Source of the DNA: Gammaproteobacteria bacterium
Lineage (GTDB): Bacteria > Pseudomonadota > Gammaproteobacteria > Eutrophobiales > Eutrophobiaceae
Direction of reading: 5' to 3'
NCBI GenBank assembly: GCA_965222155.1
Contig: CBDCTH010000012.1
Span: forward strand, 1,440,001-1,504,000
DNA: 64,000 bases
The first letter of the stretch is position 1; each line of letters starts with the position of its first letter. Below the pieces are notes generated by a model. It ran no database searches, was not told where the DNA came from, and saw only the letters and a list, made by a program, of their open reading frames with translations. A program made the position numbers and the translations under genes. Shown piece after piece: positions 39,513 through 60,429 of this stretch.

Positions 39513-39863
39513 ATGAAGTTTCAGGAATTCGTTCAAAATGAAGTGTTCTCGCCTGCACTTGTCGCAGTTGCTTTGCGTACCACCAAGTCCGAGATTGCCG
39601 ATACGTTAGGGCTGGGTCAGGATGCATTCTCGCGAACTTCTCGCATCCGGGCAAGGAAGACGCAGGTACGGCTGCGGCAAATGTTGGAAATCCTTCATCG
39701 GGTTTCAGTCCATACCGGTTCCAACCTGGCGGCCTATGCCTGGTTCCGCGCAGAGCCATTGCCAGGCTTCGGTGGTATGACACCCGACCAACTGGTACGT
39801 GAAGGTAAGGCGGATGACGTTCACACCCATCTCGACCGGGTCATGGCCGGTGGTTATGCCTGA
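39513..39863 (+). CDS. Xre/MbcA/ParS-type antitoxin
   Basis: HTH-like N-terminus and AYAWFRAEPLPGFGGMTP..LV..G...GGYA C-terminus; directly upstream of RES gene. Confidence 0.85.
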   Translation: MKFQEFVQNEVFSPALVAVALRTTKSEIADTLGLGQDAFSRTSRIRARKTQVRLRQMLEILHRVSVHTGSNLAAYAWFRAEPLPGFGGMTPDQLVREGKADDVHTHLDRVMAGGYA

Positions 39864-39878
39864 TATGTCGCCTTCCTG

Positions 39879-40388
39879 ATGCGCTTCCGGGGTCTCGTCT
39901 ACCGTGCACATAATCCACGGTGGGCCTGGGCGCCAACTTCCGGGGAGGGGGCGCGTCGCTATGGAGGACGCTTCAACCGGGCTGTAGTTCCGGCACTTTA
40001 TACGTCCCTGTCGCCGGTCACAGCCATGAGAGAGGCGAGTTCGGTAGGGCGACCACTACAACCGATCACATTGTGTGCCTACACGGTGGATGCCGAACCC
40101 ATCTTCGATATATTGGACCCCTTACAGCGAGAGGCTGAGGGGGTTACCGAGGCCGAATTCCATTGCCCGGACTGGGAACAGAAAATGCTGATGGGTATTA
40201 TCCCGGCATCGCAGGGTTTGGCTGAGCGGCTGAGTGCGGGCGGTTACGTGGGAATGCGGGTTCGGAGTTTCACGCCGGGAGCCACAGCAGATGATCTCAA
40301 TCTGGTGTTCTGGCGTTGGGGTAATCTTCGACCCAGCCGGGTCGTGCTGATTGACGATGAGGCACGTTTACCAAAGGATGAAATGTAA
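39879..40388 (+). CDS. RES-domain toxin
   Basis: YRAH.P.W, SGEGA..GGRFN, ALYTS..A.RE, VRS, NLVFW. Confidence 0.87.
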
Positions 40389-41661: not shown

Positions 41662-44600
41662 CTACCAGTTCGCCGTACTCTGTAGCATGATGCCGTGGTC
41701 GCCGCCCGCGGTTCCCTCCCGGCGCGTGCCCTCCAGGTCGACGCTGAACGACGGGCCGACCTCCAGGCGTGTGCCCAGACGGTAGCGGCGCTCCCCGCCG
41801 CCGGACAGCGCCAGGCCGCCATAGGGCGTCAGCACCCCGCGTCCGGCTACTGCCCCCAGCCCGTAGCCGACCTCCGCGTCAAACCGCGTCGGCGTGCTCA
41901 TCCGATTGTCGTTCACCCCTGCCGTACCGTCCGCCCAGAGCCGTTCCAGCCCGCTGTCCACCGCCCCCCAGGACGGTCTCAGGCTGAACGACAGCCCCTG
42001 GCCGTCCGCGCCGGGGTCGAGCGTCACCTGGCCGCCCACGCCCCATTCCTCCAGGGCGCTCTGGTGCGCCAGCAGTACCCGACCGTGCACCTCGCCCGTC
42101 AGTCCCCGCGCCGGGTCGGCCCAGCGCAGCCCAGCGCCGACCTCCACGCCGTGACCGGTCTCGCCGTCACCGCCGTCATGACGCAACCCCAACTCCAACG
42201 CTGGCGTCAGGGTGGCCCCCGATGCCAACCGGTAGGCCTGCTCACCCTCAAGACTCAGACGCAAGCGGTGGCTGTTCACCGTCAGACCCGCTATCCGGTC
42301 GCCATTGTCCGCCACCTCAAAGTGGGCCAGCCACGCCTCGCTCTTCAACGCCAGTGAGGTCGTCCCGCCGTCGCCGGCAGCGTCCCCCGAGAACAGCGCC
42401 ACCCGAGCGCCCAGCGCCGCGCTGCGCAGCACCGCATCCGAGGACTGCCAGCCCGCCTCCTCGTCATCCACCCCGACCGCCCCGCGCCCGTAGCCGACCG
42501 TTCCCCACAGCCCCAGCGACTCCCCGGGCCACCAGCCCACGTAGGGGTGAAGGCTGGTCATCCGGGTGGTATGCCGCCCGGCCAGCGCCCGGTACTCGGG
42601 CGCCCGGCCTGCTGCCGCCCGGCTGCCTGCCCCTGCCTTGTCAGCACCTGCCCCTGCTTTATCGGCGCCTGCCGGCCGGTCAGGCAGGCCACTGTCGGTC
42701 CAGTCGAACGACCCGCGCGACCAGGCCAGCGTCACACCCGTCAGCAGGTCGTCACGCCACGTCCCGTCAACCCCCACCCGCGCAGCCATCACGTCACCCC
42801 CGAACTCTACCGGGGCCGCCTCACCATCGACCGAGAGCACGCGCCAGTCGCCCTCACCCCACAGCGTCACCCCGCCCGAAGATGGCGCGGGCGGCGCGCC
42901 ATCCCCCCTGGCGCCAGCCTCCCCAGCCTTATCCCCCAGCCTGAACAGGAAGGAGGAGCCCGCCAGGACCTGCTTCCAGTCCATGTTCCCCGCGTTCAGC
43001 GACTCCTCATTGGCCTTCAGCGTCTGGACGATAGCCAGCAGGTGGTCAGCGACCGCGTCCCCCTCCCGCCTGACCGACGTATGGGGGTTCGCATCCTTGA
43101 TGCGGCGCGCCACGTCCTCCACCACCCCGGCGACCAGCGCCCGCGAGAACGCCGGCAGCAGCGCCGCATTGACACGGCTAAGACGCGCCCGCGCCACCGC
43201 CTGTTCCTCATCCATGACCGTCACCGTCACCTCAGCCCCGGCATCCAGCCCCCCGCTGTCGGTGGCGCGGACGCGCAGTGCATAGCGGTTGGCTTCGCTC
43301 TCATGGTCCTCGCCGGCGCCGGTATAGGTGATGATCCCGCTCACCGCATCGATTGCAAACAGACCCCCAGCGCCCCGGGAGAGGGCGTAGGTGAGGGTGT
43401 CACCCGCATCCTGGTCCGTGGCCCGCACGGCGCCCAGTGCCACCGGGCCGAGCCGGTTCTCCGCCAACTCGAAGGCGTAGTGTCCCTGCTCGAAGGCCGG
43501 TGCCTCGTTAACGTCAGTCAGCGTCAGGGTCTGCTCAGCGCCGGTGAAGCTCAAGCCGCCACTGTCGGTGGTGGTGATACGGAAGCGGTAACTCATCCTC
43601 GTCTCGTAATCCAGCGCGGCGCCCTGCCTCAGGTACAGCACGCCAGCGTCCGTTTCAAAGGTTACCCCAGCGCTGACGCTGAACACGTGATGGTCGCCCA
43701 CGTCCACGTCGATGGCCGACAGCTCGGCCACCTGCACCCGCCCGGCACGGGTGTCGACGTCCTCGGCCATAACGCCGTCCGCCGCCGGGGCGACCCAATC
43801 GACCACCACGCCGGTCGGCCCCTCGTTAACGTCGGTCAGCGTCAGGGTCTGCTCAGCGCCAGTGAAGCTCAAGCCGCCACTGTCAGTAGTGGTGATACGG
43901 AAGCGGTAACTCGTCCTCGTCTCGTAATCAAACGCCGCGCCTTGCTTCAGGTACAGCGCAGCGCCATCCGTTTCAAAGGTTACCCCAGCGCTGACGCTGA
44001 ACACGTGATGGTCGCCCACGTCCACGTCGATGGCCGACAGCTCGGCCACCTGCACCCGCCCGGCACGGGTGTCGACGTCCTCGGCCATAACGCCGTCCGC
44101 CGCCGGGGCGACCCAATCGACCACCACGCCGGTCGGCCCCTCGTTAACGTCGGTCAGCGTCAGGGTCTGCTCAGCGCCGGTGAAACTCAAGCCGCCACTG
44201 TCGGTAGTGGTAATACGGAAGCGGTAACTCGTCCTCGTCTCGTAATCAAACGCCGCGCCTTGCTTCAGGTACAGCGCAGCGCCATCCGTTTCAAAGGTTA
44301 CCCCAGCGCTGACGCTGAACACGTGATGGTCGCCCACGTCCACGTCGATGGCCGACAGCTCGGCCACCTTCACCCGCCCGGCACGGGTGTCGACGTCCTC
44401 GGCCATGACGCCGTCCAGCGCCGGGGCGACCCAATCGACCACCACGCCGGTCGGCCCCTCGTTAACGTCGGTCAGCGTCAGGGTCTGCTCAGCGCCGGTG
44501 AAACTCAAGCCGCCACTGTCGGTAGTGGTAATACGGAAGCGGTAACTCGTCCTCGTCTCGTAATCAAACGCCGCGCCTTGCTTCAGGTACAGCGCAGCGC

Positions 44601-47600
44601 CATCCGTTTCAAAGGTTACCCCAGCGCTGACGCTGAACACGTGATGGTCGCCCACGTCCACGTCGATGGCCGACAGCTCGGCCACCTGCACCCGCCCGGC
44701 ACGGGTGTCGACGTCCTCGGCCATAACGCCGTCCGCCGCCGGGGCGACCCAATCGACCACCACGCCGGTCGGCCCCTCGTTAACGTCGGTCAGCGTCAGG
44801 GTCTGCTCAGCGCCGGTGAAGCTCAAGCCACCACTGTCGGTAGTGGTGATACGGAAGCGGTAGCTCGCCGCCGTCTCGTAATCCAGCGCCGCGCCTTGCT
44901 TCAGGTACAGCGCAGCACCGTCCGTTTCAAAGGTGACCCCAGCGCTGACGCTGAACACGTGACGGTCACCCACGTCCACGTCGATGGCCGACAGATCGGC
45001 TACCTTCACCCGCCCGGCACGGGTGTCGACGTCCTCGGCCATGACGCCGTCCAGCGCCGGGGCGACCCAATCGACCACCACGCCGGTCGGCCCCTCGTTA
45101 ACGTCGGTCAGCGTCAGGGTCTGCTCAGCGCCGGTGAAGCTCAAGCCGCCACTGTCGGTAGTGGTGATACGGAAGCGGTAGCTCGCCGCCGTCTCGTAAT
45201 CCAGCGCGGCGCCTTGCTTCAGGTACAGCGCAGCGCCGTCCGTTTCAAAGGTGACCCCAGCGCTGACGCTGAATGCGTGATGGTCGCCCACGTCCACGTC
45301 GATGGCCGACAGCTCGGCCACCTGCACCCGCCCGGCACTGACATCGACGTCCTCGGCCATAACGCCGTCCTCCGCCGGGACGACCCAATCGACCACCACG
45401 CCGGTCGGCCCCTCGTTGACATTGGTCAGCGTCAGCGTCAAGCCGGCGCGGGTCACGCTCAAGCCGCCACTGTCGGTGGCAGTGATGCTGAAGCGGTAGC
45501 TCGCCGCCGTCTCATAATCCAGCGCCGTACCCTGCTTCAGGTACAGCACAGTACCGTCCACCTCCAGGGCCGCTGTGCCGCTCAGCGCGAAGCGGTGGCG
45601 GTCGCCCGCATCCGCATCGATGGCCGACAGCTCGGCGAGCTTCACCCGCCCGGCGCCGGCGTCCACGTCCTCGGCGATGACGCCGTCCAGCGCCGGGACG
45701 ACCCAATCGACGACGACGCGACTCGGCGCGCTGTTGACGGGTTCGACCGGCTTGACCACCACCGGCGCGGCGGCCAGCACCGTGACTTTGGCCGTGTCAA
45801 ACCGAACATCGTCGTTCACGATGTTGCCTACCGTGAGCGTGTAGGTGGTCTCCTCGGTGGGGTGGACCCTGAGCTCGCTGGTACCGGGGTCGACCTCCTC
45901 GCCGATGTCCTCCCCCAGTTCACCACCGGTGACAGTCTGCTGATACACCTCGCCACCGGAAAGCGCCCACCTCAAGGTAAACGAACCATCCTCGTTCTCC
46001 TCCGCCCGGAAGTTATCGATCCCCGGTGCGGCCAGTGGCGGGACCTCCGGGACGTTGCGCCGTGCCCGGGACCTGACCACGCTGGTCGGACCGCGGTTGC
46101 CGGCGCGGTCGGTGGCGGCCCCCTGCTCCACCTCCACCGCCAGGTCGCCGCTGTCCCCGGTCGGCGTGAACACGCCACGGTAGACCTTGCCGCCCTGACT
46201 CGAGATCAACGCCGCCGGCTTGCTGCCCCCGGTCACCGTGACATCGGACAGGTCGAACCCCGTCACGACCTCGGTGAAGGTGAACTCCACCGTCACGTCC
46301 GGGTTCGCGTTGTCGAAGGTCTCCGGTTTGATGCCGATGGACACCTCCGGGGGCGTCGCATCCCAGACCGCCGTCCGGTTAACCGCCGCGGCCGGGCCGG
46401 GATTGCCCGCCAGGTCCTCTGCACTGTTCACCTGAACGGTGATCGTCACATCGCCGCTACCGTCCGGCGTCACCGCAACGTTGAATACCAGCCCCGGCGT
46501 TGTCGTCGCCCATCCGCTCAGTCTGGCGTTGCTCACCGACACATCATCAATGATGAAGCCTGTCACCGCCTCGTTGAACGTCAATGTCACCGTGAACGCG
46601 TCCGTGTCGTTGATATAGGCCGGTACGCCGGTCAGCGTCAGCGTCGGCGCCGCGGTGTCCACCGTGCCCACCGTGAAGGTGGACGTCCGGGCGCTGCCAA
46701 TCTCATTGCCGTGCGCGTCCTCCACCGTGCTCGCCCGCAGCGTCACCGTGTACTGACTCCCCGTCTCCAGCGGGTTGGCCGGGTCCATGGTGATGACGGT
46801 CTTGTCGTTGTTGATCCTCACCTGCCCCGTGCCCGCCAGGTCGGTGCCGTCGCCGTTTACCTTCTTCAACTCCACCGCCGCCGCCGCAGCCGCCGCATCC
46901 AGGGGGTCGTTGTTGGCCTGGCGCACCGGCTCGTCGAACTGCACCAGTACGTCCGTGTCCACGTCCGTTACCACGTCACCGTCGGCCGGGACGAACGTCA
47001 CCGTCGGCGCCGCCGCATCCACCGTGAAGGTGGCGCTGGCCGCGACCACAGCATTGTCCGCCACGTCCTCCACCGTGTTCGCCAGTACCTTGACCGTGTA
47101 ACTGCCCGCCGCCAAGTCACCGTCCGGGGTGATGGTGATGATCTTGTTGGCGGCGTCAATGGCCACCCGGCTGGCCACCGCCAGGTCAGCGCCCGCGTTG
47201 TCCTTCTTCAGCTCCACCACGGTATGCGCGTTGTCGTCGTGACGGGGTCATCGCTAGCAGGCGTATCACCTCGGTGAAGGTCGCGGTGACGCTGACGGCC
47301 GGCCCCGCGGTGTCCCCGTGCGCCGGTGAGAACGTCACCGTCGGCGCCGCCGCATCCACCGTGAAGGTGGCGCTGGCCGCGACCACAGCATTGTCCGCCA
47401 CGTCCTCCACCGTGTTCGCCAGTACCTTGACCGTGTAACTGCCCGCCGCCAAGTCACCGTCCGGGGTGATGGTGATGATCTTGTTGGCGGCGTCAATGGC
47501 CACCCGGCCGGCCACCGCCAGGTCAGCGCCCGCGTTGTCCCTCTTCAGCTCCACCACGGTATGCGCGTTGTCGTTCGTGACGGGGGCATCGCTACGCAGG

Positions 47601-50600
47601 CGTATCACCTCGGTGAAGGTCGCGGTGACGCTGACGGCCGGCCCCGCGGTGGCGCCGTGCACCGGCGCGAAGATCACCGTCGGCACGGACGCGTCCACCG
47701 TGAAGGTGGCGCTGGCCGCGGCCACGGCATTGCCGTAGGCATCCTCCACCGTGCTCCCCAGCACCTTGACCGTGTAGCTGCCCGCCGCCAAGTCACCGTC
47801 CGGGTCGATGGTGATGACCTTGTTGTCGGCGTCAATGGCCACCCGGTTGGCCACCGCCAGGTCAGCGCCCGTGCCGTCGGACTTCTTCAGCTCCACCGTC
47901 AGGTGCGCGTTGGTGTCCGTGATATCGCCGTTGTCCAGGTTGCGCACCGCCTCGGTGAAGGTCACCGTCACATTGGTGGCCGGCCCCGCGGTGGCGCCGT
48001 GCACCGGCGCGAAGGTCACCGTCGGCGCCGTCGTGTCCACCGTGAACACCGCACTGGCCGCGGCCACCGCGTTGCCCGCCATGTCCGCCACCGTGTTCGC
48101 CAACACCTTCACCGTGTAGCGGCCCGCCGCCAGCGAGTTCTGCGGGTTGATGGTGATGACGTGCCCGGCCAGGCTGACCGTGGCGTCCGTCGCCAGGTCG
48201 GGGCCCGTGCCATCCTTTCTCAACTCCACCGCGCCCGCTGCCGCGCCCGCACCGAAGACACTGCCAGCCGCCGTCTGTATTACCTCGTCGAACTCCACCA
48301 GCACATTGACGCCGGCGCCCACCGTGTCCCCGTCCGCCGGCACGAACGTTACCCCCGGCGCATCCGCATCCACCGTGAAGGTCGCCGACTGCTCGCTGTC
48401 CTGCTCGTTGCCCTGCGCATCCTCTACCGTGTTCGCCAGCAGCGTCACCGTGTAGCTGCCCGGCGCCAGTGCATTCTGCGGGTCGATGGTGATGACCCGC
48501 TTCTGGACGTCGATGCTGACCCGCCCCGCGCCCGCCAGGTCGGCGCCGGCCCCGTCTTTCTTCAACTCCACCGCCGCCACCGCGTCCACGTCCTCCAGCG
48601 GGTCGCCGTTGGCCTTGCGCACCGGCTCATTAAAGCGCACCTCCACGTCCGTGTTCACGTCGCCCACCGTGTCCCCGTCCGCCGGCACGAACGTTACCCC
48701 CGGCGCATCCGCATCCACCGTGAAGGTCGCCGACTGCTCGCTGCCCTGCTCGTTGCCCTGCGCATCCGCTACCGTGTTCGCCGGCAGCATCACCGTGTAG
48801 CTGGCGCCGCTCTCCAGCGCGTCCGCCGGGTTGATGGTGATGACCGTCTTGGCATCGTTGACCGTCACCGCCGCCGTTGTCGTCAGGTCGGTGTTGTTGC
48901 CATCGCCCACGCGCACCAGCGTCAGCGCAGCCGTGGCCGCGGCCGCAGTCAGGGCATTGCCGTCGGCCTGGCGCACCGCCTCGTCGAACTGCACCAGTAC
49001 GTTCACGTCCACGTCGCCCGTCGTCGTCCCGTCCGCCGGCGTGAACGTTACCCCCGGCGCCGCCGCATCCACCGTGAAGGTGGCGCTGGCCGTGGCCACG
49101 GCATTGTCGTAGGCGTCCTCCACCGTGCTCCCCAGCACCTTGACCGTGTAACTGCCCGCCGCCAAGTCACCGTCCGGGGCGATGGTGATGATCTTGTTGG
49201 TGGCGTCAATGGCCACCCGGTTGGCCGCCGCCAGGTCAGCGCCCGTGCCGTCCTTCTTCAGCTCCACCACGGTATGCGCGTTGTCGTCCGTGACGGGGCT
49301 GTCGCTGAGCAGGCGTATCGCCTTGGTGAAGGTCGCGGTGACTCTGACGCCCGGCCCCGCGGTGGCGCCGGTCGCCGGGCTGAACGTCACCGTCGGCGCG
49401 GTCGCATCCACCGTGAAGGTGGCGCTGGCCGTGGCCACGGCGTTGTCCGCCACGTCCTCCACCATGCTCGCCAGCACCTTGACCGTGTAGTCGCCCGCGG
49501 CCAGGTCCGCGCCCGGGTTGATGGTGATGACCGTCTTATTGATGTTGATGCTCACCTGCCCCGATCCCGCCAGGTCGGGGCCCGTGTCGTCGGACTTCTT
49601 CAGCTCCACCGCCAGGTGCGCGTTGGCGTCGTCGAGATCGGTGTCATTGAGGTTGCGGATGGCCTCGGTGAAGGTCACCGTCACATTGGTGGCCGGCCCC
49701 GCGGTGGCGCCGTGCGCCGGTGAGAACGTCACCGTCGGCGCCGCCGCATCCACCGTGAAGGTGGCGCTGGCCGCGACCACCGCATTGCCGTAGGCGTCCT
49801 CCACCCTGCTCGCCAGCACCTTGACCGTGTAGCTGCCCGCCGCCAGGTCGGCGGCCGGGTTGATGGTGATGACCTTGTTGGCGTCGTCGATGCTCACCTG
49901 CCCCGAGCCCGCCAGGTCGGGGCCCGTGCCGTCCTTCTTCAACTCCACCACCCGGTGCGCGTTGGTGTCGTCGAGATCGGTGTCATCGAGGTTGCGGATG
50001 GCCTCGGTGAAGGTGGCAGTGACGCTGACGGCCGGCCCCGCGGTGGCGCCGGTCGCCGGTGAGAACGTCACCGTCGGCGCCGCCGCATCCACCGTGAAGG
50101 TGGCGCTGGCCGCGGCCACGGCATTGCCGTAGGCATCCTCCACCGTGCTCCCCAGCACCTTGACCGTGTAGCTGCCCGCCGCCAGGTCACCGTCCGGGTC
50201 GATGGTGATGACCTTGTTGTCGGCGTCAATGGCCACCCGGTTGGCCACCGCCAGGTCAGCGCCCGTGCCGTCCTTCTTCAACTCCACCACCCGGTGCGCG
50301 TTGGTGTCGTCGAGATCGGTGTCATCGAGGTTGCGGATGGCCTCGGTGAAGGTGGCGGTGACGCTGACGGCCGGCCCCGCGGTGGCGCCGTGCGCCGGTG
50401 AGAACGTCACCGTCGGCACGGACGCGTCCACCGTGAAGGTGGCGCTGGCCGCGACCACCGCATTGCCGTAGGCGTCCTCCACCGTGTTCGCCAGCAGCTT
50501 GACCGTGTAACTCCCCGCCGCCAGGTCACCGTCCGGGGTGATGGTGATGACCGTCTTATTGTTGTTGATGCTCACCTGGTTGGCCGCCGCCAGGTCAGCG

Positions 50601-53600
50601 CCCGTATTGTCCTTCTTCAACTCCACCACCCGGTGCGCGTTGGTGTCGTCGAGATCGGTGTCATCGAGGTTGCGGATGGCCTCGGTGAAGGTGGCGGTGA
50701 CGCTGACGGCCGGCCCCGCGGTGGCGCCGTGCGCCGGTGAGAACGTCACCGTCGGCGCCGCCGCATCCACCGTGAAGGTGGCGCTGGCCGCGACCACCGC
50801 ATTGCCGTAGGCGTCCTCCACCCTGCTCGCCAGCACCTTGACCGTGTAGCTGCCCGCCGCCAGGTCGGCGGCCGGGTTGATGGTGATGACCTTGTTGGCG
50901 TCGTCGATGCTCACCTGCCCCGAGCCCGCCAGGTCGGGGCCCGTGCCGTCCTTCTTCAACTCCACCACCCGGTGCGCGTTGGTGTCGTCGAGATCGGTGT
51001 CATCGAGGTTGCGGATGGCCTCGGTGAAGGTGGCAGTGACGCTGACGGCCGGCCCCGCGGTGGCGCCGGTCGCCGGTGAGAACGTCACCGTCGGCGCCGC
51101 CGCATCCACCGTGAAGGTGGCGCTGGCCGCGGCCACCGCATTGCCGTAGGCATCCTCCACCGTGCTCCCCAGCACCTTGACCGTGTAGCTGCCCGCCGCC
51201 AGGTCACCGTCCGGGTCGATGGTGATGACCTTGTTGTCGGCGTCAATGGCCACCCGGTTGGCCACCGCCAGGTCAGCGCCCGTGCCGTCGGACTTCTTCA
51301 ACTCCACCACCCGGTGCGCGTTGGTATTGTCGAGATCGGTGTCATCGAGGTTGCGGATGGCCTCGGTGAAGGTGGCAGTGACGCTGACGGCCGGCCCCGC
51401 GGTGGCGCCGGTCGCCGGTGAGAACGTCACCGTCGGCGCCGCCGCATCCACCGTGAAGGTGGCGCTGGCCGCGACCACCGCATTGTCCGCCCCATCCTCC
51501 ACCTTGTTCGCCAGCACCTTGACCGTGTAGTCGCCCGCCGCCAGGTCGGCGGCCGGGTCGATGGTGATGACCTTGTTGGCGTCGTCGATGCTCACCTGCC
51601 CCGAACCCGCCAGGTCAGCGCCCGTGCCGTCGGATTTCTTCAGCTCCACCGTCAGGTGCGCGTTGGTGTCCGTGATATCGCCGTTGTCCAGGTTGCGCAC
51701 CGCCTCGGTGAAGGTCACCGTCACATTGGTGGCCGGCCCCGCGGTGGCGTCATGCGCCGGCGCGAAGGTCACCGTCGGCGCCGCCGCATCCACCGTGAAG
51801 GTGGCGCTGGCCGCGACCACCGCATTGTCCGCCCCATCCTCCACCTTGTTCGCCAGCACCTTGACCGTGTAGTCGCCCGCCGCCAGGTCGGCGGCCGGGT
51901 CGATGGTGATGACCTTGTTGGCGTCGTCGATGCTCACCTGCCCCGAACCCGCCAGGTCAGCGCCCGTGCCGTCGGATTTCTTCAGCTCCACCGTCAGGTG
52001 CGCGTTGGTGTCCGTGATATCGCCGTTGTCCAGGTTGCGCACCGCCTCGGTGAAGGTCACCGTCACATTGGTGGCCGGCCCCGCGGTGGCGTCATGCGCC
52101 GGCGCGAAGGTCACCGTCGGCGCCGTCGTGTCCACCGTGAACACCGCACTGGCCGCGGCCACCGCGTTGCCCGCCATGTCCGCCACCGTGTTCGCCAACA
52201 CCTTCACCGTGTAGCGGCCCGCCGCCAGCGAGTTCTGCGGGTTGATGGTGATGACGTGCCCGGCCAGGCTGACCGTGGCGTCCGTCGATGACCCGTGCCA
52301 TCCTTTCTCAACTCCACCGCGCCCGCTGCCGCGCCCGCACCGAAGACACTGCCAGCCGCCGTCTGTATTACCTCGTCGAACTCCACCAGCACATTGACGC
52401 CGGCGCCCACCGTGTCCCCGTCCGCCGGCACGAACGTTACCCCCGGCGCATCCGCATCCACCGTGAAGGTCGCCGACTGCTCGCTGTCCTGCTCGTTGCC
52501 CTGCGCATCCTCTACCGTGTTCACCGGCAGCGTCACCGTGTAGCGGGCGCCGCTCACCAGCGCCGCCGCCGGGTTGATGGTGATGACCGTCTTGGCCGGG
52601 TTGACCGTCACCAGCGCCGCCGCCGTCAGGTCGGTGTTGCTGCCATCGCCCACGCGCACCAGCGTCAGCGCGGCCGTGGCCGCGGCCACAGTCAGGGCAT
52701 TGCCGTCGGCCTGGCGCACCGGCTCGTCGAACTGCACCAGTACGTCCGTGTCCACGTTGCCGGTCTTGGTCCCATGCGCCGGGACGAACGTCACCGTGGG
52801 CGCGGCCGTGTCCACCGTGAAGGTCGCCGACTGCTCGGCGCCCTGCTCGTTGCCCTGCTCGTCCTCTACCGTGTTCACCGGCAGCGTCACCGTGTAGCGG
52901 GCGCCGCTCACCAGCGCCGCCGCCGGGTTGATGGTGATGACCGTCTTGGCCGGGTTGACCGTCACCAGCGCCGCCGCCGTCAGGTCGGTGTTGCCGCCAT
53001 CGCCCACGCGCACCAGCGTCAGCGCGGCCGTGGCCGCGGCCACAGTCAGGGTTGCCGTCGGCCTGGCGCACCGCCTCGTCGAACTGCACCAGTACGTCCG
53101 TGTCCACGTTGCCGGTCTTGGTCCCATGCGCCGGGACGAACGTCACCGTGGGCGCGGCCGTGTCCACCGTGAAGGTCGCCGACTGGCTCGCGCCCTGCTC
53201 GTTGCCCTGCTCGTCCTCCACCGTGTTCGCCGGCAGCGTCACCGTGTAGCGGGCGCCGCTCACCAGCGCGGCCGCCGGGTTGATGGTGATGACCGTCTTG
53301 GCCGGGTTGACCGTCACCAGCGCCGCCGCCGTCAGGTCGGTGTTGCTGCCATCGCCCACGCGCACCAGCGTCAGCGCGGCCGTGGCCGCGGCCACAGTCA
53401 GGGATTGCCGTCGGCCTGGCGCACCGCCTCGTCGAACTGCACCAGTACGTCCGTGTCCACGTTGCCGTCTTGGTCCCATGCGCCGGGACGAACGTCACCG
53501 TGGGCGCGGCCGTGTCCACCGTGAAGGTCGCCGACTGCTCGGCGCCCTGCTCGTTGCCCTGCTCGTCCTCTACCGTGTTCGCCGGCAGCGTCACCGTGTA

Positions 53601-56600
53601 GCGGGCGCCGCTCACCAGCGCCGCCGCCGGGTTGATGGTGATGACCGTCTTGGCCGGGTTGACCGTCACCAGCGCCGCCGCCGTCAGGTCGGTGTTGCTG
53701 CCATCGCCCACGCGCACCAGCGTCAGCGCGGCCGTGGCCGCGGCCACAGTCAGGGCATTGCCGTCGGCCTGGCGCACCGCCTCGTCGAACTGCACCAGTA
53801 CGTCCGTGTCCACGTTGCCGGTCTTGGTCCCATGCGCCGGGACGAACGTCACCGTGGGCGCGGCCGTGTCCACCGTGAAGGTCGCCGACTGCTCGGCGCC
53901 CTGCTCGTTGCCCTGCTCGTCCTCTACCGTGTTCACCGGCAGCGTCACCGTGTAGCGGGCGCCGCTCACCAGCGCCGCCGCCGGGTTGATGGTGATGACC
54001 GTCTTGGCCGGGTTGACCGTCACCAGCGCCGCCGTCAGGTCGGTGTTGCTGCCATCGCCCACGCGCACCAGCGTCAGCGCGGCGTGGCCGCGGCCACAGT
54101 CAGGGGTTGCCGTCGGCCTGGCGCACCGGCTCGTCGAACTGCACCAGTACGTCCGTGTCCACGTTGCCGGTCTTGGTCCCATGCGCCGGGACGAACGTCA
54201 CCGTGGGCGCGGCCGTGTCCACCGTGAAGGTCGCCGACTGCTCGGCGCCCTGCTCGTTGCCCTGCTCGTCCTCTACCGTGTTCACCGGCAGCGTCACCGT
54301 GTAGCGGGCGCCGCTCACCAGCGCCGCCGCCGGGTTGATGGTGATGACCGTCTTGGCCGGGTTGACCGTCACCAGCGCCGCCGCCGTCAGGTCGGTGTTG
54401 CTGCCATCGCCCACGCGCACCAGCGTCAGCGCGGCCGTGGCCGCGGCCACAGTCAGGGCATTGCCGTCGGCCTGGCGCACCGGCTCGTCGAACTGCACCA
54501 GTACGTCCGTGTCCACGTTGCCGGTCTTGGTCCCATGCGCCGGGACGAACGTCACCGTGGGCGCGGCCGTGTCCACCGTGAAGGTCGCCGACTGCTCGGC
54601 GCCCTGCTCGTTGCCCTGCTCGTCCTCTACCGTGTTCACCGGCAGCGTCACCGTGTAGCGGGCGCCGCTCACCAGCGCCGCCGCCGGGTTGATGGTGATG
54701 ACCGTCTTGGCCGGGTTGACCGTCACCAGCGCCGCCGCCGTCAGGTCGGTGTTGCTGCCATCGCCCACGCGCACCAGCGTCAGCGCGGCCGTGGCCGCGG
54801 CCACAGTCAGGGCATTGCCGTCGGCCTGGCGCACCGCCTCGTCGAACTGCACCAGTACGTCCGTGTCCACGTTGCCGGTCTTGGTCCCATGCGCCGGGAC
54901 GAACGTCACCGTGGGCGCGGCCGTGTCCACCGTGAAGGTCGCCGACTGCTCGGCGCCCTGCTCGTTGCCCTGCTCGTCCTCTACCGTGTTCGCCGGCAGC
55001 GTCACCGTGTAGCGGGCGCCGCTCACCAGCGCCGCCGCCGGGTTGATGGTGATGACCGTCTTGGCCGGGTTGACCGTCACCAGCGCCGCCGCCGTCAGGT
55101 CGGTGTTGCTGCCATCGCCCACGCGCACCAGCGTCAGCGCGGCCGTGGCCGCGGCCACAGTCAGGGCATTGCCGTCGGCCTGGCGCACCGGCTCATTAAA
55201 GCGCACCTCCACGTTTGTATTCACGGTGGCCACCGTGTCCCCGTCCGCCGGGACGAACGTCACCGTGGGCGCGGCCGTGTCCACCGTGAAGGTGGCGCTC
55301 TGGTCGCTGTCTATCTGGTTGCCCTGCTCGTCCTCTACCGTGTCCTGAAGCAGCGTCACCGTGTAGCTGCCCGGCGCCAGTGCATTCTGCGGGTCGATGG
55401 TGATGACCGTCTTATCGTTGTTGATGCTGACCCGCCCCGCGCCCGCCAGGTCGGTACCGTCGCCGTTTACCTTCTTCAACTCCACCGCCGCCACCGCGTC
55501 CGCGTCCTCCAGCGGGTCGCCGTCGGCCTGGCGCACCGGCTCGTCGAACTGCACCAGTACGTCCGTGTCCACGTCGCCCGTCTTGGTCCCGTCCGCCGGG
55601 ACGAACGTCACCGTCGGCGGGGTGGTGTCATCCGTGATTGTGCCGGTGGCAACGGTATCGCCCAGCGCGGCCCAGCTGGGTAAACCGCCGGCGGGCGCAC
55701 TCACTTCCACCGTGAAGGTCTCAGGGTTTTCGACCTCGGTGTCTATCAGGGCCGGTACCTGAATCGTCGCGCTGGTCTGGCCGGCCGGGATGGTCAGACT
55801 GGCGTTGCTCTGCGGCGTGTAGTCGGGTGAGGCCCCCGTGCTGAGCGCCGCATTCGCCCCCGTGCCGTCCGTAGTTTCCCACTTCAAGATCAGGTCCAAG
55901 GACGCGGCCGTGCTCAGGCTCACCGTGAATTCAACATCGGTGCCCTCGCTCGCGGTCGCATCCGCGATGGACACCGTGGCCGTGTCATTGTCCGTAATCG
56001 TACCGACCGCCTCGGCGTCGTTTATTGTCACTTGAGTGTCGGGAAAATCGACGGCAGACGGAAAACCGCCGGCCGGCGCGGCAATAATCGCCTTGAAGGT
56101 CTCAGCGCCCTCGGCCAGGGTGTCCTCGGTAGTCTGCACCGTGAATGTCCCAGTCCTGGTGCCCGTCGCAATGATCACGCTGCCGCCCTGATTCTCCGGG
56201 TAGTCAGCGGGCGCCGTCGCGCTATCATCCTGCAGACTCCAGTCCACGGTCACGTCTGTGGGCCAGACTATGCCCAGAGTCACGGTGAACGTCATGGGCT
56301 GGCCTTCCTCCGCGCTCGCATCCGCAATGGACAGGGTGGGGGTATCGTCGTTACGGATGGTACCCGTGGCCTCGGTATCCACCAACGTCAGTGATGCGCC
56401 GGCCGGGAAACCGGCGCCCGGCTCGCGCAGCGTCACGATGAACGTCTCGTCCTGTTCCTTGTCATGGTCCTCGGTCGTCTGCACCGTGATCGTCCCGGCG
56501 CTAGCGCCGGCCGGGATAGTCAGACTGCCGTTACTCACCGGCGTGTAGTCGGCCTTGTCGCCGGTGCTCGAGTCCGCGCTGAGTGCGGGGTGGTCCCCCG

Positions 56601-59205
56601 TGGCGTCGTCCCCGGTTTGCCAGTCCAGGCTCACGTCCGCTGCCACAGGGTGGCTCAACGTTACTGTAAACTCGACAGCCTCCCCCTCTTCCGCGGCCGC
56701 ATCCGCGAGGGTAATCCTGGCGTCATCATTGCGGATTGTCCCCGTCGCCGGTTTGCCAATGAACACAGGCGAGTTCACTCCTTCTATGATAACGGTGAAG
56801 GTCTCGTCCGGTTCGGGGTTGGGGTCCTCGCGGGTATGCACCACGAGCGGGATGGCGGTCTGGCCGGCCGGGATGGTCAGCCACCGTTTGTATCGTCGCA
56901 GATAGTCGCTGGAGCTTGCCGTGCCATCCTGAGTGAACCAAATTATGTCCACGTCTACGAGCAGAATTTTGTCCAGCGTCGCCTCGAACGTGACAGTATC
57001 GCCCTCGGCGGCGGCGGCGTCCGCGATGGAAAGCGTCGCCGGGACGACGTTGCGAATCGTGACCCTGGCTGTGTTCTTATTGTTCTTATACCTCACGCCT
57101 TGTCCCGCGGGTAATGCGGGCACCTTGAATGTGACCGTGAAGTATTCGCCGTCATCCACTTCAAGGTCATACAAGGCTCTTCCAATAGAATAACTCTGGT
57201 CAGTGACGTTTGGCTCTATGGGGTATCCCGTTTCAAAGTAATCAGGACGAATATTAGCATTACTAATATGACCCCTGAACCAAGCATCATTTTGGTCCGT
57301 CGTGCCATGCGCCGAAGTTACACTAGCCGCCTTCACTGCTGTTAGAATCGGGTGCGACAGGACTATCGACAATTTGATTTCTTGTCCCTCGGGTATGGTT
57401 ACGTCTTGTAACGATATTTCCAGATCGTCATTGTCAATGGTGCCGACGACCTGGGTTGTCATCAGCAACACCCCGGCCGGCAACGAGGGTGCGCTCAGAT
57501 TGACATAAAACGTCTCGTGCGGCTCACTCACCTCGTCCTCAAGCGTCGCCACCGTTATCGTGCCTTCGGTGGCGCCGGCAGCAATGGTCAGGCTACCGTT
57601 GCTTTGCGCCGTGTAGTCATCAACGGTGTTCGGGTCATTATCGGTGGTCGCGGGGTTGTCCCCCGTGGTGTCAGCGGTTTCCCAGCGCAGGGTTACAGCC
57701 GACGACACAGCCTGGGACAGTCTGACGGGGAACTCGATGTCGTTACCCTCCTGCGCATGGGCATTGCCAACGTGAACCGTCGTACGCGTGGCTGCGGAGC
57801 CCGTGCCGAAATCGAGACTCCAGGCGGACGGCGCTGTATAACTGAAGCCCTGAAACGACTGGTGTCTGCCACGGCTGGGATCATGATACGGACGCTGGCC
57901 GAAGCCCGGCTCATCCACTATGACGACTATCCTGGGCGGCTTGCCGTCCGTATCAGGGGTGCCGGTGACGCTGAATTGCCCGCTGTCTGTCTCGCCCGCC
58001 TCGATTTCCGTCTCACCGGATACGGTCTTCCGGCCGTTCACCAGCCCGTCCTGGGCTTCGGCGCGCCATCTCACCTTTGTGGCGCGCAGCACACCCTGGG
58101 CAATTTTCACCTTGAAGTCGACAGCCGTGCCTACAGTCAAGGTGGCGTTACCGACGCGCGCCAGCGACACCTCAAGAGGCGCATGGGAAAAATACGCGTT
58201 CTCCACGTTGGCCAGACCGGCGAACAAGCCCGCCGGCAGGCTCGTGAGTGCCGGGTTATTTTGAACCAGGAGATGTTTCAACTTGCTCAGGCCGTTGAGC
58301 AGGGTTGCCGGCAGGCTGGTCAGGTGGTTATCCGATAAATCCAGGGATTCAAGATTGCTCAGGCTGTTGAGCAAGGTTGCCGGCAGGCTGGTCAGGTGGT
58401 TATCCGATAAATCCAGACCTTGAAGATTGCTCAGGCCGTTGAGCAAGGTTGCCGGCAGGCTGGTCAGGTGGTTATGCGTTAAATCCAGGGATTCAAGATT
58501 GCTCAGGCCGTTGAACAGGGTTGCCGGCATAGTCAGACTCTTATCCTTTATATTCCCGTTAGCCCCTAAATTCAGGACTCTAAGCTTGCTCAGGCCGTTG
58601 AACAGGGTTGCCGGCAGGCTGGTCAGGGCGTTGCCATATAAATTCAGAGTTTGAAGCTCGCTCAGGCCGTTGAACAGGGTTGCCGGCAGGTCAGTCAGTC
58701 GGTTCTGCTGTAAGTACAGGTTTTGAAGATTGCTCAGGTCGTTGAACAGGGTTGCCGGCAAGTCAGTCAGTCGGTTATTCTGTAAATACAGGTTTTGAAG
58801 CTTGCTCAGGCCGGCGAAATCGCCCGCTTTCAAGGAGTTAATATTCCTTCTGCCAAGATCGAGCGTAATCAAATTCGCCAGGTGGTCAGCGGTGACATCC
58901 TCGCAACGGCTGACGCCCGACAGGGTGTTGACGATTTCGTCCTGCACCGTCCGCGTACGGTCGCAGACCCCCGAGGCGGTCTGGGCGGCGGCGGGTTCGA
59001 GGAGCGCCAGCGCGCCGAGGCAACACAGGAGTGCGGCCAACCCGGCGCCGACCGTCGGGCGCACCCGCACCGCTCTCAGGCTGCCACCCTGCCCGGAAAA
59101 TCGGGGGGGGGGGGGGTAAGGTGCCGGGCGCAGTTGTAGCGCCCGCGCAGCGATCATGAAGGGCTTCCGGCCAACACTTGAATACGTGTGAACTTGGGTT
59201 TTCAA
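41662..59205 (-). CDS. Giant (~5,850 aa) surface adhesin: LRR head, Calx-beta x6, Ig-like x~28, cadherin x~8, C-terminal autotransporter-like beta-barrel; broken by several frameshifts in this assembly
   Basis: ORFs 54100-59205, 53046-54182, 52204-53127, 47186-53479 and 41662-47220 continue one domain series across frames; signal-like ..LLCCLGALALLEPAAAQ; terminal W; alternative ATG at 59157. Confidence 0.88.
43500..45710 (-). repeat. Tandem 318-bp cadherin-domain repeats (~7 near-identical units)
   Basis: Period 318 (43712, 44030, 44348, 44666, 44984, 45302); LDYET, TDSGGL, DVNE motifs. Confidence 0.92.
46660..55620 (-). repeat. About 26 tandem SbsA/Big_5-like Ig domains (339-354-bp units, several subtypes)
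   Basis: Recurrent PTVTF.P..G...F.E.VR...VELKK...ITI.P...L..G.YTV...V.D..GN...SATFTVD; eight near-identical 354-bp units at ~52455-55270. Confidence 0.92.
58200..58970 (-). repeat. 72-bp (24-aa) leucine-rich repeats with Cys-containing N-cap
   Basis: GTTGCCGG anchor at 58304, 58376, 58448, 58520, 58607, 58679, 58751; LPATLFNGLSxLxxLxLxxNxLT. Confidence 0.92.
59103..59116 (-). repeat. C14 homopolymer in the 5' coding region of the giant adhesin
   Basis: 14 consecutive G on the + strand; reads TAC CCC CCC CCC CCC CGA (Y-P-P-P-P-R), currently in frame. Confidence 0.9.
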
Positions 59206-59272
59206 GAACCCCCGTCAGTTCAGGGCAAGAAGCTGGTAAAACGGCAGCAGTTTCCGCGCATTTTATCAGCTC

Positions 59273-59327
59273 CCCGGGCACGCGGGCATCCTGTCCTCGT
59301 GGAGGGCGGGACGCCCTCCCTCCCGGG
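59273..59327. repeat. REP-like palindromic module, also carried inside MITE B at ~18441-18496
   Basis: GGGCATCCTGTCCTCGTGGAGGGCGGGACGCCCTCCCTCCC versus GGGCATCCTGCCCTCGTGGAGGGCGAGACGCCCTCCCTCCC. Confidence 0.75.
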
Positions 59328-59472
59328 CATAACAGTTATCGAAAGCGATTTTAACATGCGGCAACAACCCCCTACTCAACCATATTAAAATCATATTGTA
59401 CTATCATTGTAATAGCAAGTGGGAACCTGCAGTGGGCAATTCAATTTGTTGACAACATGTCATTATTCATTG

Positions 59473-60429
59473 ATGATTTATAAAACACGCAAAACCGAAA
59501 GCGTTGTCATTGACAATGAACATGCCGACCGACGCATCGATAATTTTCTGCTCGCTTTCCTGAAACCCATACCCAAAAGTCGCATCTACCAGATGCTGAG
59601 ACGTGGCGAGGTCAGGGTAAACAAGGGTCGCATCAAGCCCGACTACCGCCTTCAAGCGGGAGATATTATCCGCATCCCCCCGCTATTTGAGCAACCGGCC
59701 GGAATTCCCGACAAACCGCCGGCGCGCCTGGTTGAAATGATAAAGACCTGCATTATGTATGAGGATAGGCGGCTTATAGTCATAAATAAACCCGCCGGCC
59801 TGGTTGTACATGCAGGTACGGGAAGCGCTTTTGGTATTATCGAGATCCTGCGCGAGTTATATCGGCAAAAGCAGGACCTGCATTTAATTCATCGACTGGA
59901 TAAAGAGACTTCCGGTTGTCTGTTGATAGCTAAAAACATGACAATCCTGCGTCAGGTCAACCAGGCTCTGAAAAGCGGCGCCGTGCATAAAGAATATCAG
60001 GCCCTGCTGCAAGGCCGGTTACACGAAAAAAAAATCACGGTGAACACCCCGTTGCAACGTCATAGAAATGATTACGGCGAAGGACAGGTCAGGGTTGATG
60101 GCGCCGGCAAGACTGCCATATCCAAGTTTATGACAGTCAGGGTTTACAGGGATGCAACTCACGTCAGGGTCAGGATTGCCACCGGCCGAACTCATCAAAT
60201 CAGGGTCCACGCCGGTTCCATCGGCCATCCCCTTGCCGGTGACAAAAAATACGGAGACAGGGAATTTAACAAAAAAATGTACGCAGCCGGCCTGAAACGC
60301 ATGTTTTTACACGCCGGCAAACTCGCCGTACCCGAATTGAAAAAAACCGGAGAACATCAATTTATCGCGCCGTTGCCGGCGGACCTGGAGGCGGTATTGA
60401 CCCGGATTGCTCATCAAAGCACTTCGTAA
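59473..60429 (+). CDS. rluC: 23S rRNA pseudouridine synthase RluC
   Basis: RIDNFL S4 domain, NKPAGL.VH, HRLDKETSG, TGRTHQIRVH, MFLHA; start approximate. Confidence 0.92.
   Translation: MIYKTRKTESVVIDNEHADRRIDNFLLAFLKPIPKSRIYQMLRRGEVRVNKGRIKPDYRLQAGDIIRIPPLFEQPAGIPDKPPARLVEMIKTCIMYEDRRLIVINKPAGLVVHAGTGSAFGIIEILRELYRQKQDLHLIHRLDKETSGCLLIAKNMTILRQVNQALKSGAVHKEYQALLQGRLHEKKITVNTPLQRHRNDYGEGQVRVDGAGKTAISKFMTVRVYRDATHVRVRIATGRTHQIRVHAGSIGHPLAGDKKYGDREFNKKMYAAGLKRMFLHAGKLAVPELKKTGEHQFIAPLPADLEAVLTRIAHQSTS

Follow-up and report, generated by a model that had tools for sequence, protein, structure and literature searches.

The stretch of DNA considered here (the window) comprises 64,000 nucleotides (nt) of contig CBDCTH010000012.1 from an uncultured gammaproteobacterium, and it carries on its minus strand a gene for a giant repeat protein with an unbroken run of 14 Cs (C14) near the 5' end. 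We regard this locus as a probable slipped-strand phase-variation switch, and consider it slightly better than an even bet that C14 is a hypermutable tract in the translated leader of a giant surface protein, where it would act as an on/off switch. The occurrence of the run is far beyond chance, and we infer that it slips here and that this affects expression.

The C14 run

Direct reading of the window places a pure G14 on the plus strand at 59103–59116, and this is the sole G/C run of at least 10 nt in the whole window, the five overlapping 10-mer matches all falling within it. When the window was shuffled 100 times with dinucleotides preserved, the mean number of 10-mer matches was 0.35 and none of the 100 reached five. 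The next-longest homopolymers are T9 and A9 (C12:1469717 and C12:1500026), and the initial annotation was exact in describing a pure 14-bp G run as the longest homopolymer in the window. Its suggestion that the tract is long enough for slippage also stands, as the criterion for phase variation is a G/C mononucleotide tract of ~8–9 nt or more and C14 exceeds this hypermutability length. The minus-strand translation around the run is LKTQVHTYSSVGRKPFMIAARALQLRPAPYPPPPRFSGQGGSLRAVRVRPTVGAGLAALLCCLGALALLEPAAAQTASGVCDRT..., and the elements of the leader are listed below in the order in which they would be read.

59203–59205, minus strand: TTG, a second possible start, in frame and 16 codons upstream of ATG 59157 (from the reading frame).
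59155–59157, minus strand: ATG, the favoured start, 41 nt upstream of the run and the gene-caller start of the 1685-amino acid (aa) protein P0002 (in frame, and with the leader motif).
59103–59116, minus strand: the C14 homopolymer on the coding strand (G14 on the plus strand), giving the third base of Tyr14, Pro15–Pro18 and the first base of Arg19, numbered from ATG 59157.
59076–59078, minus strand: TGA closing the leader open reading frame (ORF) at run lengths of 13 and 16, 5 nt before GTG 59070 (from simulation).
59062–59070, minus strand: two in-frame GTGs (59070–59068 and 59064–59062) downstream of the run, possible starts giving a classical 27–29-aa signal peptide (AVRVRP in the translation).
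58984–59049, minus strand: hydrophobic core of the signal peptide and a cleavage-like site between AAA and QT (read by eye).

It is extremely unlikely that the run is a sequencing or assembly artefact. Homopolymer length is the least reliable part of assemblies, and the runs in a related genome (G021) are found at contig ends, but C14 is in the middle of a 3.5-Mb contig with unique flanks on both sides, and there are 22 other long runs in the genome with conserved positions in paralogous loci. The exact length could be off by one with the run itself being real.

Candidate start codons and the effect of run length

The ORF that ends at 54100 shares its frame with both TTG 59205 and ATG 59157. 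Translation from ATG 59157 would give MIAARALQLRPAPY, then the run as PPPP, and continue into the signal-peptide core, with the hydrophobic core GAGLAALLCCLGALALL located at about 59049–58999, downstream of the run. By eye, an N-terminal Sec signal peptide, as expected of a type Va autotransporter, is present with a basic region, the hydrophobic core and the AAA–QT site. The positions and frame therefore agree with the initial annotation, which had placed the run between both starts and the signal core and had held that the present length keeps the frame.

We simulated different run lengths to see how each would be read. At 11, 14 and 17 nt, ATG 59157 opens an ORF of 1684–1686 aa; at 13 and 16 nt the leader ORF is 26–27 aa and ends at TGA 59078, and a further upstream GTG (59281) also enters the frame; and at 12 and 15 nt the translation is 89–90 aa, out of frame, with a stop at 58888. 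If replication slippage added or removed one or two Cs, the start would no longer be in frame with the remainder of the gene, so that a population would carry both on and off variants. In the simplest scheme, the gene would be on at run lengths of 3k+2 and off at others. The earlier claim that a one-base change silences the gene would fit a start at ATG 59157, which is in frame only at 11, 14 and 17 nt, but GTG 59070 and GTG 59064 may keep some expression going, and the off state may be leaky because a GTG-started classical signal peptide lies directly downstream of the run.

On the sequence evidence, the upstream start is probably the one used, which would place the run within the coding region. 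This start is favoured because metagenome homologues have long leaders, three of which share LQL(R/S)PA near a proline run. The stretch just after the run also looks coding, because two homologues (P0149 and P0004) begin there and a start codon is lacking between the run and RFSG.

The alternative that the true start is GTG 59070 or GTG 59064 is somewhat unlikely. The run would then be in the 5' untranslated region within a short upstream ORF, where its length might tune expression without abolishing it, or do little. Such a start would yield a textbook signal peptide (MRVRPTVGAGLAALLCCLGALALLEPAAA, then QT), and the upstream ORF, stopping 5 nt before GTG 59070 at 13 and 16 nt, could permit re-initiation; at 12 and 15 nt, ribosomes running ~76 codons out of frame over the start would block it, and 14 nt fuses the two. 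Similar arrangements are found at C12:1660582, where CAATGA occurs at C21, and in a relative (G095), where a C9 run is 5 nt before the first ATG. Against this, neither GTG has a convincing Shine-Dalgarno sequence at the proper spacing, the sequence separating the run from the GTGs looks like the coding N-termini of P0149 and P0004, the sequence ahead of the run has a leader motif which in P0087, P0158 and P0123 is part of the protein, and the gene caller selected ATG 59157 and not a GTG. It should be noted that Shine-Dalgarno scores fail to separate the candidate starts, and that use of the motif is weak genome-wide, with -5 kcal/mol or lower at 34% of 154 clear starts versus 18% of random sites.

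We also consider it unlikely that the run is a three-position selector rather than a two-state switch. In such a selector, the leader ORF would be fused to the signal peptide at 3k+2 (as assembled); at 3k+1 the leader would stop 5 nt before GTG 59070 and ribosomes would be passed to the shorter classical signal peptide; and at 3k an overrun of ~76 codons across the start would block it. The CAATGA stop/start overlap recurs at one of a family of poly-C loci in this genome (family A, below) and in the LRR-cap gene of the relative G095. If the selector is true, this lineage would have a general system in which a leader ORF and poly-C grade the output of giant surface proteins.

Homologues of the leader and searches for the locus elsewhere

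P0123 starts MLQTRSAPPPPPP, to be compared with ALQLRPAPYPPPP at this locus, and in a genome search residues 2–149 of P0123 were aligned with window positions 59139–58672. Hexamers resembling LQLRPA (at least four of six identities) were found in four of 10,725 leader windows from 195 fetched proteins, and three of the four were in P0123, P0087 and P0158, which are the three proteins with a Y/P run in the leader; LQL(R/S)PA beside a proline run is common to these three metagenome homologues. Leaders of 40–80 aa are common in this protein family. The two closest homologues are P0149, which begins MFSG... and is 59% identical in the alignment, and P0004, which begins MFAERFG..., is 56% identical and has the same architecture as the window gene. 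The 90% clusters of all five proteins (P0123, P0087, P0158, P0004 and P0149) are singletons, with no in-cluster variants in the length of the proline run, and the genome encoding P0123 was not found among the 126 family genomes searched.

A number of observations weigh against a phase-variable coding leader, and these include the textbook signal peptide of the downstream GTGs and the undiscriminating Shine-Dalgarno scores described above. P0087 and P0158 are mutually close relatives and the motif evidence therefore amounts to about two independent proteins; a proline run is missing from P0004 and P0149, the closest homologues, and at least four consecutive prolines in the first 60 residues are found in one of the 195 other fetched proteins. 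A 721-nt DNA query from the locus gave only REP-like and poly-G low-complexity matches when compared with 40 relatives. A 419-aa N-terminal protein query had matches in 10 of 41 genomes (including the genome itself), with those in 9 of the 40 relatives being to the LRR part, and none of the matches in other genomes begins before query residue 39, leaving the run and the preceding stretch uncovered. The closest relative (G041) has no match to the N-terminus of the gene, and no orthologue was found among the 41 other genomes searched with it (the 40 relatives plus G041). Metagenome scans by alignment, and by exact run flanks around a variable gap, each returned zero confirmed matches to the locus.

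The initial annotation had suggested that paralogous giant genes be checked for the same tract, and the gene has no paralogue in its own genome; other giant genes there carry 5' tracts.

Comparison of 25 LRR-cap homologue loci (24 from relatives plus this one), which are mostly internal repeats rather than gene starts, found a G/C run of at least 8 nt only in the window locus and in L115 (C9). In L115 (G095:C1:1451000–1452400; same family), C9 is at 528–536, preceded by TTA and lying 5 nt upstream of the first ATG in a giant gene with an LRR cap, and a small upstream ORF crosses C9 and stops at a CAATGA which overlaps a later in-frame ATG.

Long G/C tracts in the genome

The 4.55-Mb genome contains 23 G/C runs of 10–27 nt. 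Runs of 5 to 10 nt number 4580, 971, 197, 24, 7 and 3, respectively, a ~five-fold drop per added base, and after this there are none of 11 nt and then 20 of 12–27 nt, making the length distribution bimodal; A/T runs never exceed 10 nt. Most of the 23 runs lie at the 5' end of a gene whose product is a giant protein, either surface-located or secreted, and the tract-linked genes include fn3/cadherin giants, FG-GAP/RTX/metalloprotease proteins, two TonB-dependent receptors and another fn3 giant. Surface and secreted proteins and receptors of similar classes phase-vary elsewhere. MutS and MutL are both present and intact in this genome. Read as poly-C, the run is directly preceded by an A in 18 of the 23 cases, and the Cs are mostly on the coding strand of the downstream gene.

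Direct evidence that tracts change length quickly comes from C8, which matches 29.8 kb of C10 (85475–115275) at 99.37% identity and in which a G12 stands against G21, with a 7-nt difference alongside. Other contig pairs of ~99% identity are C7 with C10:23402–51782 and C1 with C12:15399–34260; C7 and C10 differ at a homopolymer, G10 versus GGAGGGGCC, inside a P-loop ATPase gene. These small near-duplicate contigs are either strain variants or recent duplications.

Run flanks group seven loci in family A (C6:22243, C8:784, C10:86262, C12:345726, C12:1660582, C12:2469851 and C12:2606944), with run lengths of 9, 10, 12, 14, 20, 21 and 21 nt. The family-A runs precede fn3/cadherin giant genes, and ahead of the run these loci have a conserved TTGACA promoter and a ~45-codon leader ORF (MAINMNARLPYGGEFGTVNAAGCSADSLTHRLRGIPRPSSFT, then prolines), which we take to be coding because the only indels among the paralogues are of 12 and 15 nt. 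Simulation of six copies gave one fused in frame, one with a stop overlapping the next ATG and four off, and at C12:1660582, with C21 as assembled, the TGA of the leader and the ATG of a classical signal peptide overlap as CAATGA. Family B consists of four loci with runs of 12, 19, 20 and 20 nt located about 210–240 nt upstream of their ORFs. Family A is confined to this genome among 23 genomes of the genus, and exact runs of at least 12 nt are found in 20 of the 23 (this one included), very unevenly distributed and in some cases located at contig ends.

Architecture and frame changes of the giant gene

From 59205 to 41662 on the minus strand, the order of elements is the leader, an LRR cap and LRRs, Calx-beta, many Big_5 Ig-like repeats, Big_12, cadherin repeats and a 400-aa C-terminal domain. 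The initial annotation had read this as one ~5,850-aa protein encoded by a 17.5-kb gene, and this has to be given up for the present assembly, in which the span is divided between four ORFs (54100–59205, 53046–54182, 47186–53479 and 41662–47220) with six frame changes. The main parts are:

54100–59157, minus strand: first ORF of 1685 aa with the leader, LRR cap, LRRs, Calx-beta and Big_5 repeats (from the ORF list and domain search).
47186–54182, minus strand: middle part with near-identical 354-bp Big_5 repeats and five of the six frame changes (from a repeat-unit probe).
41662–47261, minus strand: last part, with the sixth frame change (at about 47261/47202) followed by Big_5/Big_12 and cadherin repeats; this part shares its frame with the first ORF (from ORFs, domains and the probe).
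41665–42864, minus strand: the C-terminal 400 aa, a predicted outer-membrane beta-barrel ending in W (from AlphaFold, Foldseek and conservation).

The repeat-unit probe places the first five frame changes at about 54106/54083, 53470, 53404/53362, 53050 and 52363/52294. The aligned 354-bp units are near-identical except for 1–3-nt deletions which result in units of 349, 352 and 352 bp. These frame changes break the gene after 1,685 aa and must be added to the points weighing against a working switch, as the gene may be dead.

This raises the alternative of a decaying pseudogene on a recently acquired island, in which the run may slip yet switch nothing useful, and this we find doubtful. It would account for the six frame changes and four ORFs over 17.5 kb and for the small deletions in otherwise near-identical units, and the breaks do not appear to be a generic artefact of assembly because the assembly has other, intact giant ORFs whose repeated 24-mers are at least as numerous. 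An island is also consistent with the 20.6 kb found here between rne and rluC; the closest relative lacks all of this and has 376 nt between the two genes. On the other hand, the first and last ORFs share a frame (59205–47220 is a multiple of three), the repeats and barrel are otherwise free of stops, and P0004 also ends in an out-of-frame tail within its repeats, a hint that genes of this type are prone to poor assembly. The genome bin has 7.3% contamination and near-duplicate contigs, and a mixed-strain consensus could have created the frame breaks.

Eleven Pfam matches to the 1685-aa ORF were found at E up to 0.001 and none of these was to the extended signal peptide region (ESPR) of autotransporters; the 58-aa leader is long like an ESPR but is unrelated in sequence. 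We also note a 1576-aa open frame on the plus strand (window 42547–47277), antisense to the cadherin repeats, which most likely arises from GC-rich repeat DNA with few stops and does not represent a gene. G+C content is 62–69% in the giant repeat genes versus 53% for the genome, which suggests a strong amino-acid bias or foreign origin.

The C-terminal domain

The C-terminal domain is shared with the C-termini of ten fetched metagenome proteins, all of which end in F or W. Pfam gave no match to the domain at E up to 1, and the TIGR01414 autotransporter barrel scored 13 bits against a cut-off of 16. A sequence search of PDB with this domain alone gave no match, and a profile search of PDB returned one weak match to an unnamed chain (E 0.8). 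The AlphaFold model, built on a seven-sequence alignment, is all-beta with 18 strands and a mean predicted local distance difference test score (pLDDT) of 75.7, and its Foldseek matches are all outer-membrane barrels, with TonB-dependent receptors at the top followed by BrkA (3qq2) and AIDA-I (4mee) with template-modelling (TM) scores of 0.47 and 0.46, respectively, normalised on the target. Judging from this model, there is a fair case for an autotransporter-like, surface-anchored giant repeat protein, a label which stops short of membership of the classical (type Va) family with its 12-stranded barrel, and the barrel may represent an undescribed class of anchor for giant adhesins. The role in host interaction put forward in the initial annotation is a guess from the domain types.

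Locus setting and upstream elements

RluC (59419–60429) is 93% identical to the RluC on the chromosome named "MAG: Gammaproteobacteria bacterium" (MAG, metagenome-assembled genome), which is the closest relative and in which rne and rluC are divergent neighbours. The 20.6-kb insertion (window 38834–59418) holds a RES/antitoxin pair and the giant gene; the RES-domain toxin ORF is at 39879–40388 and is preceded by a small ORF (39513–39863) resembling its antitoxin. Two elements were recognised upstream of the leader:

59390–59418, minus strand: the sole sigma-70-like match on the strand of the gene, TTGCTA-17-TATGAT, with 9 of 12 positions (from a promoter scan).
59273–59335, no strand assigned: a REP-like, GC-rich palindromic repeat between the promoter match and the start (from a DNA search of the genome).

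Fifteen further copies of the REP-like element are among the genome matches listed, and several adjoin tract loci (C12:1660905 and C8:1008). An Rfam scan of 58800–59500 found no known RNA family at E up to 1.

The position of these elements bears on whether the run acts on transcription, as a spacer within a promoter or between an activator and promoter, instead of on translation, which is very unlikely. There is a precedent in this genome at C12:231246–231258, where a near-consensus promoter ahead of the gene for a 911-aa TonB-dependent receptor has C13 plus ATC as its 16-nt spacer (TGGACA on one side, TAAAAT on the other), and the family-B runs are also well upstream of their ORFs. At the window locus, however, no sigma-70-like hexamers flank the run, the sole match being about 270 nt upstream, and hexamers at a spacing of 16–18 nt, such as GGCACC, agree by eye with TTGACA in 2 of 6 positions. 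The run was accordingly rejected as a sigma-70 promoter spacer. At the C12:231246 promoter, one added base would give the optimal 17-nt spacing.

Significance and comparison with known systems

Most of what is known of poly-G/C phase variation comes from a few cultured mucosal pathogens, and here about 23 tracts in an uncultured gammaproteobacterium are set on giant proteins with LRR, cadherin, fn3, FG-GAP and RTX repeats. If these tracts switch, this lineage would vary its cell surface stochastically, which bears on how it meets hosts, phages and grazers. There is also a bearing on annotation, as such genes will often appear frameshifted in consensus assemblies though they are not dead. A literature search for such tracts in symbionts or metagenome-assembled genomes gave general papers (e.g. 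PMC2831843) and nothing on this lineage, which does not imply absence from print.

By analogy, the mechanism we propose for C14 matches the homopolymeric-tract phase variation known from autotransporters and from loci in Bordetella and Campylobacter. Such variation is reported for the NalP and MspA autotransporters of Neisseria meningitidis (PMC3723659). The likeness lies in a homopolymeric tract within the part of the gene that codes for a secreted or surface protein with a C-terminal outer-membrane barrel, and in an on/off state that depends on frame, which at our locus is predicted from the sequence. Unlike in NalP and MspA, the run in the window is in an extended leader before the signal core, and the protein is several times larger, with LRR, Calx-beta, Big_5 and cadherin repeats and a barrel without a Pfam autotransporter match.

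Homopolymeric-tract phase variation is also reported for Bordetella pertussis (PMC1891110) and Campylobacter (PMC8355987, PMC7168839). This genome is similar in having many poly-G/C tracts, within and between genes, focused on surface structures, and differs in belonging to an uncultured gammaproteobacterium with intact MutS and MutL, tracts of up to 27 nt and giant proteins with eukaryote-like repeats. The Opa proteins of Neisseria have pentamer repeats in the region coding for the signal peptide. As in Opa, the repeat at our locus would be in the leader and the mature protein unaltered in the on state; in contrast, the Opa repeat is a pentamer and ours a homopolymer, and the Opa proteins are small 8-strand barrels. 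The nearest likeness is within the genome itself, where the family-A loci have the same succession of a start, a short leader, poly-C read as prolines, 20–45 codons and then the signal core of a giant repeat protein, although family A has its conserved TTGACA promoter and 45-codon leader, whereas the leader in the window is 14 codons long and shares no sequence with it.

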